A DNA stretch of 5,661 bases, from IMG/VR virus record IMGVR_UViG_2778261667_000016; one strand, written 5' to 3'. Positions 204 to 5,661 of the stretch are shown piece after piece. A model generated the notes under the pieces. It made no database searches, was not told the DNA's origin, and saw only the letters and a list, made by a program, of their open reading frames with translations. The stretch comes from a virus. Lineage: Duplodnaviria; Heunggongvirae; Uroviricota; Caudoviricetes. The translations under genes were made by a program, and so were the position numbers. The number at the start of each line of letters is the position of its first letter. Position 1 is the stretch's first letter.

Positions 204-491
204 TTAACGGATAAACAGCCAGACCAGCAGACACGCCACCGCGGGCACCGCAAAATCCATCAGACTTGCCACATCCCATGCACGAGGATCAAAACCGCCC
301 CACCACGGCATGTTAATCCGCTTGCCATGCCCGAACATTTCAATCCAGCGATATTCTGCCTGGGTGTGTTCACGCGCAATGAAGAACGTACAACCGGCTA
401 TCGCCCCGTAAGCCCAGTTTCCGGTAAAAAGACCAATCAGTAGCTGCGCAGCCACAGCACAAAGTGCATGAAGGAAAGGTGTTATATCCAT
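204..491 (-). CDS. Hypothetical small integral membrane protein (about 95 aa, two predicted TM helices)
   Basis: ATG at 489-491 is preceded by AAAGGAGGAG (strong SD) and lies 13 nt downstream of the previous stop. The ORF-track start at 515 is a GTG that would overlap the upstream gene and is less likely. Hydrophobic segments FLHALCAVAAQLLIGLF/WAYGAIAGCTFFIA near the N-terminus and DFAVPAVACLLVWLFI at the C-terminus. Stop TAA at 204-206. I recognise no family. Confidence 0.6.
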   Translation of the reverse strand: MDITPFLHALCAVAAQLLIGLFTGNWAYGAIAGCTFFIAREHTQAEYRWIEMFGHGKRINMPWWGGFDPRAWDVASLMDFAVPAVACLLVWLFIR

Positions 492-504
492 TACTCCTCC
501 TTTA

Positions 505-1206
505 TCAGATATCACTTCGGGAAGTTGATAACAACTTTAATTCTGACTCAAGTTCATCAACTCTTTCAGTCAGTTTCTGGATATGGTGAATCAGTGGAAC
601 AACCAGACGTTCGTACATTACACCTTCGGCAACAAGGCCATTGCTGGAAATAGCTTCAGGAGCATCATCTTCGTTAGCTGGTCGCCAGTGTACAAACTGA
701 GGAGCAATTTCTCCCACTTCCTCGGCAATCAATCCGTAGAATCCCCAGTCACTCCTGTCATTTTCGCATTGCGACCTGTACCACACAGGGCGCATCCTGA
801 AAATGAGATCGGCGTGCTCTGAATCTATTGTCTCTACTGAATGTTTATAGCGAATAGACGATGTTGACCGCAGTACAGACGAAATTGCAGGGTCAGGATT
901 AAGATAAAGATTTGCCGCCGCTGTAGTCGTGCCCAATTCCCATAAATAAAACGCTTCACGGCCAGTCAGCGGGTAAAAATCTCCACCATAACGACCGCTT
1001 TCCAGATCGTTCACTTCCAGTTTGTTTTTCAGCTTATTATCAACTTCAGTTTTTGTGTATCTGGTGCTGATATCCTGCTTTGCACTGGTCATATCAGTCT
1101 GAAGCGTTGATACTTTTCCGTTAATTGAGGAAATATCTTCCTTAGTTTTACTGACATCTCCCTTTAGCGTGGTGATATCTCCTGGAATTACTGTCGATGT
1201 AGCCAT
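505..1206 (-). CDS. Small fiber-like protein (233 aa) with C-terminal intramolecular chaperone domain (peptidase S74 / chaperone-of-endosialidase type)
   Basis: ATG at 1204-1206 is preceded by GGGAGA (SD) 4 nt upstream. The N-terminal ~70 aa are a polar coiled-coil-like repeat (DITTLKGDVSKTKEDISSINGKVSTLQTDMTSAKQDISTRYTKTEVDNKL). Residues ~116-225 (nt 532-861) follow the intramolecular-chaperone pattern as I recall it: SSIRYKHSVETI (consensus S-D-x-R-x-K-x-N-I), LIFRMRPVWYR, GFYGLIAEEVGEIAPQFV (consensus G-F-I-A-Q-E-V), and YERLVVPLIHHIQKLTERVDELESEL (C-terminal helix). Stop TGA at 505-507. Confidence 0.75.
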   Translation of the reverse strand: MATSTVIPGDITTLKGDVSKTKEDISSINGKVSTLQTDMTSAKQDISTRYTKTEVDNKLKNKLEVNDLESGRYGGDFYPLTGREAFYLWELGTTTAAANLYLNPDPAISSVLRSTSSIRYKHSVETIDSEHADLIFRMRPVWYRSQCENDRSDWGFYGLIAEEVGEIAPQFVHWRPANEDDAPEAISSNGLVAEGVMYERLVVPLIHHIQKLTERVDELESELKLLSTSRSDI

Positions 1207-1215
1207 TTGTCTCCC

Positions 1216-1497
1216 TCACATCCAGCCACGAAGTTGATGCTCAACAACAACCGCGTATTTATCGAATATTGACGATTTTTTTGCATCATTAATGATGCGC
1301 ACGTTTACAAAATATCCGTCTTCCTTAACACATACCGGTTCGCCATCTTCAGTCAGTTCTCCGGTTTCTTTGTACACGTTACCTATCACGTCAATAAGAA
1401 TATTATCCTGCATCGACTCGTCATCATAATAGCCAGTGCTCTCCATAAAGGCCGAAAAGTCGGCCCTGTCTGCAAATTTGAGTGTTAAATCTTTCAT
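1216..1497 (-). CDS. Hypothetical small acidic protein (93 aa), translationally coupled to stf
   Basis: ATG at 1495-1497 overlaps the stf stop at 1497-1499 (TAATG on the coding strand). Stop TGA at 1216-1218, only 9 nt before the next gene. The product is acidic (many D/E), with no signal peptide or transmembrane segment. I recognise no family with confidence and it does not resemble lambda Tfa as I recall it. Confidence 0.6.
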   Translation of the reverse strand: MKDLTLKFADRADFSAFMESTGYYDDESMQDNILIDVIGNVYKETGELTEDGEPVCVKEDGYFVNVRIINDAKKSSIFDKYAVVVEHQLRGWM

Positions 1498-3878
1498 TAG
1501 ATTGACTCCCCCACCTGAGCATCAGTCAATGCCTTGTGCCATATTCTGAAATTCCTGACATGACCAAATAAATGACGTAACCCGGCAGTAGTCTGGCCTC
1601 CAATACGGATAATTGCGGTGTTCTGAATACAGGACCATGTGGTTTTTGTTTCGCTGGATATACGCCCGTTACTTACTGAGCACGTAGACTGATCTGACTT
1701 TACACGCATCCCCATAACCATTTTTTCAAGCGATGCGTTTTCGTTTACCCGTCTGTTAGCTCCTCCAATATCGCAATAAGGAAATCCGTCGTAATCTGTT
1801 GAACGACCGAAGCCAAGAATAATAGCCGCTCCGGTTTGATGACCGCCGGTGTCAAAAACACGCGGAGCTGCATTTGGCGTTTTATACCAGTTCTTATGTA
1901 CCTCACAAAGAACCGTAAAAGGAAGATTATAAAGATTATTCTTAATGGGAACTGTAACTATATCGCTTGCGCGGGTCGCCGCCGTCGTTCCTGATATAAT
2001 AAAAGATGATACACAAGGCCCATTTTCTACTTGTGGGGTGGCCAGATAAATATAGTCACCAGATACGGTTGCCCCGCCCTGCTTAGGAGAATACTGTATC
2101 TGAGAACCTATTTTTAACTCCCCATCAATTGCCTGAATTGTTGCCTCTGCAAAAATCCATCCGGTAGCTTCGTCCTTTCTGACTCTCGCAGTAATCCTTG
2201 AGGCAGCACCGCCTGTCATATTAATTTCAAGCGTTTGTGTATCAATATACGCATCACCAAGAAAAGTTGTTGCGCTACCGTCATATTTATCAAACCGGAT
2301 ACGCAACCTTACCTGCAGTTCTGTTTTAAAACGACATGAGGTTGTCACGTGTTTATTATCGCCTGAGACATCAACTGACTTTGTTGCAGCAATTGATGCC
2401 ATATTAATGGCTGAGGTTTGCCCAATCAGAGAATCGTTGCAGACAAACTTTCCATAGGTAAAACCAAAACTATCCGTCCCTGTTTCGGGCACATCCATAT
2501 TTGACGATCGCCCCCAACTGGCAGGGTTTTCCGAATTGAGCATGTAGTTTGTTCTTTGCCCCTCAATAAGCAGGCCATCACGTTCAAACCGTGGCTCGTC
2601 AATGGCAGCCTCTGTCAGCACACCAGATTTATTAATGTAAGTTGCTTTTGATGCGCGTTTAAACTTTACAACCTTATCGCCAGGCATCGTTATTTCATCA
2701 TCACCAATAACAATCTTTTTATATGACGGCGAAAAGCCCGTAATCATATCCAGTGAATCGTTAAACGGTATCCACACATCGGGAAGCGGCTGCAATACTT
2801 GTTTATACGGCTCCGCAGCCTGGCTTGCATACTCTCTGGCTGCGTCTTCACTTGCTTTTGCAGCCGTCTGGCTTGCAGCGGATGCTTTCGCCGAGTTAGC
2901 CGCCGCAGTCTCGCTCGCCTTTGCGTTGGTTTCACTGGTTTTTGCAGCTTTTTGACTGTTGGCTGATGCAGTGGCAAAAGCAGCCGCCGCGCTTGCAGAG
3001 CCAGCTGCAGCACTCTCGCTTTCGGCTGCTGCATCCTGACTGCTTTTCGCCGCAGTTTCACTGGCTTTGGCATTCGTTTCGCTGGTTTTCGCTGCCGTCT
3101 GGCTGGACTTTGCGTTGGTTTCGCTGGTTTTTGCAGCTTTTTGACTGTTGGCTGATGCAGTGGCAGAAGAAGCCGCCGCACTTGCAGAACCAGCTGCGGC
3201 ACTCTCGCTTTGGGCCGCTGCATCCTGGCTGTTTTTCGCCGCAGTTTCACTGGCTTTGGCATTCGTTTCGCTGGTTTTCGCTGCCGTCTGGCTGGACTTT
3301 GCGTTGGTTTCGCTCGTCTTTGCGGCTGTCTCGCTGTTTTTCGCATTGGTTTCTGATTTTTTGGCTGCTGTCGCGGAGTTTGCCGATGCAGTCTGTGAGG
3401 TCGCTGCCGCCTGTGCGCTGTTAGCTGCATTCGTTTCTGAGGTTTTCGCCGCGTTCTTCGATGATGCCGCTGCAGTTTCGGATTTCTTTGCCGCCGCTGC
3501 GCTCTGAGAGGCGGCTTCGGCGTTGCGTGCCGCTTCTTCCACCATTTCCTGAAAACGGCGCAATGCCTCCGGCATGACATCATCTTCCGTCATGGCACCG
3601 AGAAAATCATTCAGCGTCCCCGGACTGGAACCTTCATAGACGGTAATGGTCCCGGCATGTGAAGGCGGAAAACCTTCAACCAGCAGGGTGACGCTGTACT
3701 GGCCATACTCAACATCCATGCTGTAACGCCCGGCTTCATCCGGATTTTCAGAGGCCACTGTGTTGACCAGTACCGTGGTGCTGTTACGCTTTGCCTTCAG
3801 TTGAATAGTGCAGTTCTGTATTGGTTTTCCCGCACCATCTTTCAGCACACCTGAGATTTTTACTGCTGCCATATCCAC
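1497..3878 (-). CDS. stf: Side tail fiber protein, chimeric: lambda-Stf-like N-terminal anchor, Ala/Ser/Thr heptad-repeat shaft, non-lambda C-terminal putative lectin-like receptor-binding region
   Basis: 793-aa ORF. GGAG lies 7 nt upstream of ATG 3876-3878; an alternative ATG at 3870-3872 would give MAAVKISG. The first ~110 residues (AVKISGVLKDG.GKP.QNCTIQLKA.RNSTTV.VNTV.SENPDEAGRYSMDVEYGQYSV...GFPPSHAGTITVYE...PGTLNDFL.AMTEDD) match the N-terminus of lambda Stf as I recall it. Residues ~113-355 are AAKTSET-type heptads. The C-terminal ~440 aa contain segments such as EGQRTNYMLNSENPASW and a terminal LRHLFGHVRNFRIWHKALTDAQV that resemble concanavalin-A-like/LamG jelly-roll domains. Stop TAA at 1497-1499. 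Confidence 0.88.
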   Translation of the reverse strand: MDMAAVKISGVLKDGAGKPIQNCTIQLKAKRNSTTVLVNTVASENPDEAGRYSMDVEYGQYSVTLLVEGFPPSHAGTITVYEGSSPGTLNDFLGAMTEDDVMPEALRRFQEMVEEAARNAEAASQSAAAAKKSETAAASSKNAAKTSETNAANSAQAAATSQTASANSATAAKKSETNAKNSETAAKTSETNAKSSQTAAKTSETNAKASETAAKNSQDAAAQSESAAAGSASAAASSATASANSQKAAKTSETNAKSSQTAAKTSETNAKASETAAKSSQDAAAESESAAAGSASAAAAFATASANSQKAAKTSETNAKASETAAANSAKASAASQTAAKASEDAAREYASQAAEPYKQVLQPLPDVWIPFNDSLDMITGFSPSYKKIVIGDDEITMPGDKVVKFKRASKATYINKSGVLTEAAIDEPRFERDGLLIEGQRTNYMLNSENPASWGRSSNMDVPETGTDSFGFTYGKFVCNDSLIGQTSAINMASIAATKSVDVSGDNKHVTTSCRFKTELQVRLRIRFDKYDGSATTFLGDAYIDTQTLEINMTGGAASRITARVRKDEATGWIFAEATIQAIDGELKIGSQIQYSPKQGGATVSGDYIYLATPQVENGPCVSSFIISGTTAATRASDIVTVPIKNNLYNLPFTVLCEVHKNWYKTPNAAPRVFDTGGHQTGAAIILGFGRSTDYDGFPYCDIGGANRRVNENASLEKMVMGMRVKSDQSTCSVSNGRISSETKTTWSCIQNTAIIRIGGQTTAGLRHLFGHVRNFRIWHKALTDAQVGESI
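2814..3542. repeat. Array of degenerate 21-bp (heptad-coding) repeats inside stf
   Basis: Recurring DNA motifs (tttcgctggtttt, tttggcattcgtttc, gcagcttttt, etc.) with 21-bp periodicity. They translate in the stf frame to about 35 Ala/Ser/Thr-rich heptads (AAKTSET, NAKSSQT, NAKASET, AAAGSAS ...). Confidence 0.85.
2917..3326. repeat. Near-perfect 189-bp direct tandem duplication (about 2.1 copies) within the stf shaft repeats
   Basis: The string ggtttttgcagctttttgactgttggctgatgcagtggca occurs with gcagc at 2944 and again at 3133, an offset of 189 bp. The flanking sequence aligns over roughly 2917-3116 versus 3106-3315 with only scattered mismatches. At protein level stf residues 185-247 and 248-310 are 63-aa blocks differing at a handful of positions. 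Confidence 0.9.
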
Positions 3879-3883
3879 TCCAC

Positions 3884-3909
3884 AAAAAAGCCCGCCTGAA
3901 CCGGCGGGC
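3884..3909 (-). terminator. Rho-independent terminator between lom and stf
   Basis: GC-rich inverted repeat gcccgcc(3890-3896)/ggcgggc(3903-3909) with 6-nt loop. On the minus-strand transcript it is followed by UUUUUU (A-run 3884-3889 on the plus strand). It lies 28-53 nt downstream of the lom stop and is immediately followed by the stf ribosome-binding site. Confidence 0.75.
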
Positions 3910-3936
3910 TGTCATAACACTGTGTTACCTGGCTAA

Positions 3937-4536
3937 TCAGAATTTATAACCGACACCAACGATGAAACCGTCAGTGCGCCAGTCGCCACTGCCGGAACCT
4001 TCATAAGCAATATCAATGGCCACGGATTCGGTCGGGTTAAACTGCACGCCAGCCCCCCATGCCAGAGACGTGTCGCTGTGGCGACCGTCATCACTTCCGG
4101 TCAGCACATCGTGCGTTTTCCCCTTGTTGTCAGTTACGCGGATATAATCTCCGGAGAAAGTCGAAACACGGCTGTAAGCCATACCCGCCATCGCATACGC
4201 GCTGAACCATTCATTCACGCGCACAGACGGCCCCGCCATCACGCTGAACCAGCGGTTACGCACGGAATCTTCATGCCAGCGGGTATCGCTGTAATGGGTA
4301 AGCTGGCGATTCTTGTCTCCTGCATAGCTGAATGACGTCACCAGCCCCAGTGTGTCCGTAAACTCATAACGGTATTTCACGTTAATCCCGTTAAGATCAT
4401 CGCTGCCGGGAACGTTCGTCGAGGCATGAAGATACCCCGCGCTCAGCGTGGACTGATGTTCAGATGCCCATGCAGGCGCACCGGATACGGCCAGACAGAT
4501 GGCTGCGGAAAAAATGGCGGCATAAAGTTTACGCAT
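3937..4536 (-). CDS. lom: Lom/Ail/PagC/OmpX-family outer membrane beta-barrel protein (lambda Lom homolog)
   Basis: 199-aa ORF with ATG at 4534-4536 and SD-like GAGG 5 nt upstream. N-terminal signal peptide [25 protein letters not shown]-terminal segment [25 protein letters not shown] is the conserved last strand of lambda Lom and the Ail/Lom family, ending in the aromatic residue typical of outer-membrane barrels. Position between J and stf matches lambda. Confidence 0.92.
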
Positions 4537-4558
4537 AATTACCTCTCGCTTTTCTGCA

Positions 4559-4584
4559 ATAAAAAAGGCACCATTTCTGGTGCC
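4559..4584 (-). terminator. Rho-independent terminator between J and lom
   Basis: Inverted repeat ggcacca(4567-4573)/tggtgcc(4578-4584) with 4-nt loop. On the minus-strand transcript the hairpin is followed directly by a U-run (A-run on the plus strand at 4561-4566). It lies 22-47 nt downstream of the J stop codon. Confidence 0.7.
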
Positions 4585-4605
4585 CTTATATGGGTTATAA
4601 CAATT

Positions 4606-5661
4606 TCAACGAATACTGATGCCGGAAGCGGCTTTTTTGGTCACAATCACCGTACAGTCGGTGATATTACCTGCCCACTGATTGCCTTTATGGAAAACCT
4701 TAAACTCCAGAGTGACGCTTCCCCTGCCACTCGGCATATCAATAACCGCACTGTAGCTACCGGGAATGGCCCCTTTAGTTTCTCTGGATGCGATTAATAC
4801 ACCGTTTTTGCGAACTTCAAAACCATAACCCGTGTATCTTGTACCTCCCGGGTTATTACCACTTCCCGGATCGCTATACGCTATTCCGTTAAAGATAATG
4901 GGCGGAATAATGATTTGACGGTCAAAGTTATGATCATCGCTGATGGTGACTGTAACCGTCCCGTTTGGTGTTTCCGTGTTACCCCACGTACCAGCCTGTT
5001 TCGGAAATGATTTGGATACAGCTTTAACGAAGTCACCTCTGACCTGAGTCGCCTCCAGCATGCCCTTAATCGTACAGTTCTGGTTAATCGTGACATTGTT
5101 GAGCGTTCCTGAGTTCGCATTCACACTACCACTGATATCCGCATTTTTAGCGGTCAGCTTTCCGTCTGATGTCAGGGAAAATACCGGAGGACTGCCACCG
5201 CTGGTAATGGTGGGGGCTGTCAGGCGCTTCAGGAACACGTCGTTCATGAATATCTGGTTGCCCTGCGCCACAAACATCGGCGTTTCATTCCCGTTTGCCG
5301 GGTCAATAAACGCGATACGGTTAGCGGCAACCAGAAACTGGCTCAGCTTGCCTTCCTCCGTGTCCTCCATGCTGAGGCCAATACCCGCGACATAATGTTT
5401 GCCGTCTTTGGTCTGCTCAATTTTGACGCCCCACATGGCATTCCATTTATCGTTAGCGTCCTTCCACTCTTTCGAAAACTCATCCAGTCTGCTGGCGTTA
5501 TCCTCCGTCAGATCAACTTTTTCCAGCAGCTCTTTACCGAGATGGGATTCGGTTATCTTGCCTTTGAAAAAATCCAGGTAACCTTCCGCATCATCGCTCG
5601 CCCGACCGACGGCCTCCACGAATGCCGATTTGCCAACGGTGTTCACACTGCGGATATAAAA
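4606..5661 (-). CDS. J: Host specificity / central tail fiber protein J, C-terminal part (partial; N-terminus lies beyond the window edge)
   Basis: Minus-strand reading frame stays open through position 5661, so the M at 5646 in the ORF track is an internal GTG codon, not the real start. Stop TGA at 4606-4608. Sits immediately upstream of lom and stf exactly as in the lambda gene order J-lom-stf, and the proximal part resembles the distal region of lambda gpJ as far as I recall it. Confidence 0.8.

Follow-up and report, generated by a model that had tools for sequence, protein, structure and literature searches.

A small protein ending in an intramolecular chaperone domain, third gene of a tail-fibre cassette in a lambdoid Escherichia coli prophage

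The 5,661 nucleotides analysed here, referred to as the window, come from a lambdoid E. coli prophage, where they form the right-hand end of its late operon; all genes lie on the minus strand. The nearest phage record is Escherichia phage IdasGreatGrand, with 95% identity over 83% of the window. From high to low coordinates, the features are:

4606-5646, minus strand: C-terminus of J
3937-4536, minus strand: Lom
1497-3878, minus strand: 793-aa Stf-like side tail fibre with a PF08400 N-terminus, cassette gene one
1216-1497, minus strand: 93-aa ORF (phrog_1361), cassette gene two, its start overlapping the fibre stop codon
1211-1215, minus strand: Shine-Dalgarno GGGAG of the 233-aa ORF, 4 nt before its ATG
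505-1206, minus strand: 233-aa ORF, third gene of the fibre cassette, small allele (stop codon 505-507)
1162-1206, minus strand: N-terminal adaptor motif, aa 1-15, MATSTVIPGDITTLK, common to all third-gene products
1063-1176, minus strand: predicted helix or coiled coil, aa 11-48, with a/d heptads (AF2 helix 11-47)
862-1062, minus strand: tip module 'YTKTEV...TTT..AN...RSTS', aa 49-115, presumed substrate of the intramolecular chaperone (IMC)
859-861, minus strand: Ser116, predicted nucleophile, with the predicted cut between Thr115 and Ser116
844-846, minus strand: Lys121, predicted general base of the Ser-Lys dyad (Ser +5)
508-861, minus strand: IMC / Peptidase_S74 domain, aa 116-233, with a C-terminal long helix (aa 198-232)
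204-491, minus strand: small membrane ORF of ~95 aa (phrog_1443), listed as 204-515 from an upstream GTG

Following the PF08400 domain of the 793-aa fibre are an Ala/Ser/Thr-rich coiled-coil shaft and then a GTA_spike_fiber / lectin-like head. The 233-aa ORF starts at ATG, and its GGGAG lies within the 9 nt between that codon and the stop of the 93-aa gene, so that the ORF has the start and Shine-Dalgarno sequence of its own with which an earlier note on this DNA had credited it; the codons given there for Ser116 and Lys121 are also right. A scan of positions 1-1600 for promoters and terminators gave no terminator and no signal above shuffled expectation. The computed masses of the two parts of the chain are 12.5 kDa (aa 1-115) and 13.6 kDa (aa 116-233). 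Experimental work on the small 233-aa protein was not found in the literature.

Comprising the C-terminal half of the protein is a domain recognised by PF13884 (Pfam Peptidase_S74), which aligns over aa 116-172 with profile positions 1-57 of 58 (E = 6.9e-6) and scores 26.7 bits against a gathering cut-off of 22 bits; the profile search proposed in the earlier note, once run, gave a match above the curated threshold. The 233-aa protein also matches phrog_3299 (E = 5.6e-140) and several 'tail fiber protein' PHROGs, and is without a significant match in NCBIfam. A sequence search of the PDB returned the L-shaped tail fibre of DT57C (8hqz_d) with a whole-sequence E of 1.6e-7 that combines a shaft-repeat stretch with a C-terminal stretch (aa 109-223), the latter alone having an i-E of 0.079. 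Also returned was the ICA domain of MyRF (7dc3, E = 0.013), in which K121 is aligned with K592 and S116 lies opposite an alanine at the position of S587. In MyRF, S587A is the non-cleaving mutant, and S587/K592 is the experimentally defined dyad, the counterpart of endoNF S911/K916 (PMC8326128).

Both S116 and K121 are unchanged in 28 homologues (identity range 30-97%), as they are in 52 distinct coding sequences. The best fold matches of the 233-aa protein are solved IMC domains, with which it shares the C-terminal placement and the long terminal helix. Owing to the Pfam match, the alignment with the MyRF dyad and the invariance of S116 and K121, the assignment of aa 116-233 to the S74 / IMC class is secure on sequence grounds. 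The S74-like C-terminal domain with its Ser-Lys pair in register, as first proposed, is thus upheld by the PF13884 match, the invariant dyad and the fold matches. The known working of IMC domains is left unchanged by this protein.

Preceding the IMC domain is a mature part of 115 residues in which the variable receptor-binding domain between adaptor and IMC is absent, leaving a coiled coil and a conserved tip of ~65 residues only. Residues 11-46 form five clean heptads with an unbroken a/d pattern (I11, L14, V18, T21, I25, I28, V32, L35, M39, A42 and I46), and the helix is matched in the PDB sequence search by the trimeric coiled coil of the P22 tail needle gp26 (4lin, E = 0.004). The description of the mature part as coiled coil, made in the earlier note, therefore stands for these heptads and fails for aa 49-115, a conserved β-rich tip. 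This tip is homologous to the final ~65 mature residues of full-length Stf-type and P2-type fibres, which end in the same IMC subfamily as the 233-aa protein. Confidence in the tip is low in the AF2 monomer model, with pLDDT below 50 over aa 62-123.

The earlier note missed the setting of the small ORF, which is the third gene of a conserved, horizontally mobile fibre cassette consisting, in order, of a fibre with a lectin-like head, a protein of ~92 aa and an IMC-ended protein. In PeterMerian (Drexlerviridae), the fibre, a 92-aa ORF and a 231-aa ORF are 56%, 46% and 56% identical to the trio of the window. The same gene order is present in T5-like HMD-P4, EC100, phC17 and IrisVonRoten, in Nonagvirus ESCO3 and JenP2, in Dhillonvirus KarlBarth and in the lambdoid Tritos. 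In nearly all of 154 related loci the distance from the 93-aa gene to the start of the third gene is 9-12 nt, as it is at every one of them with a detectable downstream ORF. Third-gene products span 231-588 aa and all open with the motif M[AV]T.T.IP.DI..LK, seen in 10 diverse phages; PF13884 was detected in all four products tested. The KarlBarth annotation divides the third gene into two ORFs, of 98 and 196 aa (positions 3770-4649 of locus L212), with the adaptor on the first only, and in Dru_SM1 the third gene shifts frame just past the adaptor (positions 3776-3991 of locus L215), either as a pseudogene or through a sequencing error.

The second gene belongs to a family (phrog_1361) with 179 phage records, carried by lambdoid, T1-like, T5-like, Dhillonvirus, Queuovirinae and rV5-like phages, in which it constantly accompanies a fibre with a lectin-like / GTA_spike_fiber head. 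It adjoins a tail or tail-fibre gene in every listed annotated record, and its start overlaps the fibre stop codon at every locus examined. Identity to the 93-aa protein is at least 82% among the 120 matches listed in a large protein search. The 93-aa ORF has no match in Pfam, NCBIfam or PADLOC, the last of which gave zero matches for all three small proteins of the window, and its AF2 model, built from a shallow alignment, has a pLDDT of 44. It may be the fibre's own chaperone or a socket for the third-gene adaptor. At 80 IMG/VR loci seeded by the 93-aa protein alone, 43 have the small allele as the next ORF, 25 a 346-aa allele and 3 a truncated ORF, the other 9 being undetermined; a scan of IMG/VR with the 92-aa protein of PeterMerian gave one locus. 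Lambdoids of the Perceval type and ev243 are without any third gene, which is therefore optional.

Between Tritos and the window, the fibre is 97% and the 93-aa protein 90% identical, and the third gene of Tritos encodes a protein of 346 aa whose likeness to the 233-aa protein stops after the first ~20 residues. At 20 loci the small body is joined to an adaptor variant typical of the 346-aa allele, which indicates that these loci are recombinants. A constant N-terminal adaptor with an exchangeable body behind it is what usually marks a fibre or spike subunit attached to the virion. Single chains combining the PF08400 fibre N-terminus with the same tip and IMC are also found (P0185, 958 aa; P0186, 735 aa); they are 68-69% identical to aa 100-233 and have the tip module in common from about residue 50. 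At the very end of the protein, the last ~23 residues (aa 211-233, positions 508-576, minus strand), LTERVDELESELKLLSTSRSDI, are almost identical to the C-termini of P0184 (588 aa) and the Stf-type P0185, the remainder of the domain being just ~68% identical. This near-identity suggests that the small gene and genes for long fibres have recombined recently.

Of the options in the earlier note, a short whisker or an accessory fibre, the accessory part is the reading favoured by the evidence; an independent whisker is weighed below. We consider it fairly probable that the 233-aa ORF encodes an accessory or distal subunit that can be exchanged within a three-gene cassette for side or lateral tail fibres, and that it is the smallest of the common alleles.

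Situated at the position of lambda tfa, the 233-aa product could instead be a trans-acting assembly chaperone for the 793-aa fibre that never enters the virion. Its gene is downstream of the fibre gene, its mature part is without an obvious receptor-binding domain, and in E. coli C4 and E. coli B a tfa remnant is found just downstream. The annotation 'putative lateral tail fiber chaperone' is used in the BASEL genomes PeterMerian and KarlJaspers and in HMD-P4, although the name probably comes from the Pfam title 'Chaperone of endosialidase', and Tfa-type families in Pfam and NCBIfam gave no match to the 233-aa protein. The fibre head of Perceval is 92-96% identical, yet a homologue of the third gene is absent from its whole 50 kb; the two-gene form also occurs in ~45 related prophages and in ev243, and Tritos pairs its near-identical fibre with a different protein. 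The obligate co-occurrence with a client fibre that marks Tfa-type chaperones is thus not seen in Perceval-type phages, ev243 or Tritos. Side fibres are dispensable on K-12, and the infectivity of Perceval and Tritos is therefore no proof of fibre assembly. Both phages are infectious (PMC9928086). Characterised IMC domains work in cis, on the segment immediately upstream (PMC8326128). Together, the two-gene forms, the Tritos swap and the action of IMC domains in cis make an obligate role in trans unlikely, and we regard a chaperone that acts on the neighbouring fibre as quite improbable.

If the 233-aa protein is an accessory subunit, its partner should travel within the cassette, because the third-gene N-terminus is the same across families, whereas proximal fibres use family-specific N-termini (PMC8594841). 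The C-terminal ~150 aa of the fibre, referred to here as block B, were considered as the docking site and rejected, as their form does not vary with the third gene: the common form of block B is found in ev243, where the third gene is missing, and divergent forms occur together with a third gene in JenP2, EC100 and phC17. Residues 392-410 of the fibre (positions 2649-2705, minus strand), GDDEITMPGDKVVKFKRAS, are kept in all 10 of the examined fibres with a third gene. The segment reads GDDVVQVASDKQVNFSRAS in two lambdoids without a third gene and is deleted in an rV5-like homologue. Resting on few independent events in sequence comparison, it is a candidate docking region.

The optional nature of the third gene, and the failure of block B to track it, would also fit an independent short fibre or whisker attached directly to the tail tip or baseplate and not to the Stf-like fibre. 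All third-gene phage groups found are siphoviruses, with a J-like tip gene annotated where the flank reaches, so a shared tail component could be the partner. Such an attachment is nonetheless unlikely, as the adaptor motif is identical across families whose proximal fibres have family-specific anchors, and the close spacing after the 93-aa gene is kept in nearly all of the 154 loci. It is also at odds with the published BASEL-2025 AF-Multimer model, in which the third-gene product of IrisVonRoten, Gp24, is a distal fibre on the proximal fibre Gp22, with a galectin-like head (PMC11990801). Homology of the Gp22-Gp23-Gp24 locus with the cassette of the window was confirmed.

Of 5426 complete E. 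coli genomes, 746 carry the 233-aa ORF at 90-99.9% identity, annotated there as 'tail fiber domain-containing protein', and the cryptic Qin-like prophage of E. coli B is among its carriers. At least 80% of the 233-aa query is covered in 47 phage records, and many virulent Drexlerviridae have full-length homologues of 231 aa (~56% identity). With aa 100-233 as the query, 3017 relatives were found among 1.84 billion representative proteins, and the best 150 of them have a median length of 482 aa (IQR 374-615). Lengths are broadly distributed, and the protein falls at the lower end of that range and is no outlier. Its earlier description as unusually small is borne out in so far as it is below that median, but 14 of the best 150 relatives have at most 250 aa and the ORF is common in E. 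coli. Set beside the accompanying statement that S74 domains normally end proteins of 700 to over 1000 aa, just 26 of the best 150 exceed 700 aa.

Among the IMG/VR loci whose copy starts at residue 1, 116 of 117 copies are intact. The pooled Nei-Gojobori dN/dS of 52 unique sequences is 0.17, a value to be read as an estimate and not as a test, its pairs being pooled and phylogenetically non-independent; by region it is 0.30 (aa 1-65), 0.13 (aa 66-115) and 0.12 (IMC). The ORF is under purifying selection by this estimate, and the broken frames and relaxed selection of a pseudogene are not seen. The tip is thus conserved and not diversifying, an uncommon state for a tip that binds receptors; its role may be to bind some conserved structure or just to cap the fibre.

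These values bear on a further reading, in which the ORF is the leftover 3′ end of an older S74-terminated Stf gene, kept as a recombination donor without a role of its own. Over its entire length the ORF matches positions 1147-1384 of phrog_3299, which has 1385 positions, full-length Stf proteins finish in the same tip and IMC, and the ORF survives in defective prophages with a broken fibre gene. The last 23 residues, nearly identical to P0184/P0185, suggest recent exchange, and lend the donor cassette of the earlier note a little support. A low dN/dS over all three regions and the near-complete set of intact copies argue the other way, as do the ORF's own adaptor motif and Shine-Dalgarno sequence and the retention of length and gene order in compact virulent Drexlerviridae at 56% identity. 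We regard a leftover end as most improbable, and the remnant reading of the earlier note is contradicted by the selection estimate, the intact copies and the conservation in Drexlerviridae.

Acting as an accessory fibre subunit, the 233-aa protein would be matured by its own C-terminal domain. The IMC would template the folding of an intertwined tip of ~65 residues (aa 49-115), after which the Ser116/Lys121 dyad would cut between Thr115 and Ser116 and the 13.6-kDa IMC would be discarded. The remaining trimer of 12.5-kDa chains would form a stub ~10 nm long, which the N-terminal peptide MATSTVIPGDITTLK would dock onto the 793-aa lectin-headed fibre or onto the 93-aa protein. We infer the trimerisation, cleavage, virion incorporation and docking partner of the product.

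A narrower proposal, which we hold with little confidence and think rather doubtful, is that the small allele is a 'blank' distal subunit, a cap devoid of a receptor-binding domain with a structural or regulatory job. Such a cap might complete or stiffen the end of the fibre, or might mask or position the lectin-like head. If this were so, cassettes would toggle by recombination between no cap, a blank cap and a receptor-binding cap behind a 15-residue adaptor, and the tip of ~65 residues would be the smallest natural IMC client.

Closest to the cassette among described systems is that of the T5-like phage IrisVonRoten (Bas32), in which Gp22-Gp23-Gp24 have the same three-gene order (PMC11990801). 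Gp22 and Gp23 have 52% and 37% identity to the 793-aa fibre and the 93-aa protein, respectively, and Gp24 resembles the 233-aa protein in having the N-terminal motif and a C-terminal IMC. Gp24 differs in being a T-shaped protein of 574 aa with two receptor-binding domains, whereas the product of the window has only a coiled coil and the short tip; its IMC is in another S74 subfamily than that of Gp24 (27% identity). T5 pb1 and DT57C LtfA (4uw8, 8hqz) are single chains of 1076-1396 aa anchored on the tail collar and, unlike the 233-aa protein, have a large receptor-binding domain ahead of the IMC.

The IMC domains of K1F endosialidase (3gw6) and of the GA-1 neck appendage (3gud) are the founding MEROPS S74 members. 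Their clients are an enzymatic tailspike or appendage with a long triple β-helix, whereas the client in the window is tiny. The MyRF ICA domain (7dc3) belongs to a eukaryotic membrane transcription factor of unrelated biology. The full-length lambdoid Stf proteins P0185 and P0186 carry everything in one chain, with an N-terminal PF08400 domain that is also that of the 793-aa fibre; in the window, tip and IMC form a chain apart from the fibre that brings its own adaptor, and the 793-aa fibre, unlike P0185 and P0186, ends in a lectin-like head. Lambda Stf/Tfa occupies the same genomic place, downstream of J-lom-stf, but there is no sequence relation to Tfa.

The 233-aa protein is a small, widespread member of the already recognised IMC-terminated accessory fibre subunits. 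Names for the family are inconsistent across thousands of prophage and phage genes, among them 'hypothetical protein', 'tail fiber domain-containing protein', 'chaperone of endosialidase' and 'putative lateral tail fiber chaperone'; the comparisons made here argue that third-gene products are probably self-processing fibre subunits and not chaperones. An adaptor of ~15 residues joined to an IMC predicted to remove itself would be a natural plug-in format for swaps of fibre tips, common to lambdoid, T1-like, T5-like, Dhillonvirus and Queuovirinae phages, which matters for predicting host range and for engineering phages. For studies of IMC-assisted folding, the mature part of 115 residues would serve as a compact model client.

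Downstream of the 233-aa ORF, the ATG of the small membrane ORF is 13 nt after the stop codon and is preceded by AGGAGG. The product is hydrophobic, probably membrane-associated, and has no match in Pfam or PADLOC. Its gene closes lambdoid fibre operons with or without an IMC gene (Tritos, 95% identical; Perceval; ev243), and the cassettes of virulent phages are without it; it may be a lysogeny-related moron. Below it is an AT-rich segment (positions 1-203) that contains no convincing ORF. A tfa remnant, as annotated in C4 and E. coli B, was sought in this segment, and no frame encodes one; homology with C4 begins only at nucleotide 214, and the segment probably marks a mosaic boundary where the fibre operon ends.

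The fibre gene is split in E. coli C4 and broken by an IS3 in the Qin-like prophage of E. coli B C3029, and in both the 93-aa, small IMC and membrane ORFs are intact and followed by the tfa remnant, which shows that the cassette took the place of an stf-tfa end. Within the shaft of the fibre gene of the window (positions 2901-3327), a 189-bp unit is repeated in tandem (2.3 copies, 92% identity), with sub-periods of 21 and 42 bp that correspond to heptad 'SETNAK' repeats; this repeat probably explains the differences in shaft length among relatives (731-793 aa).
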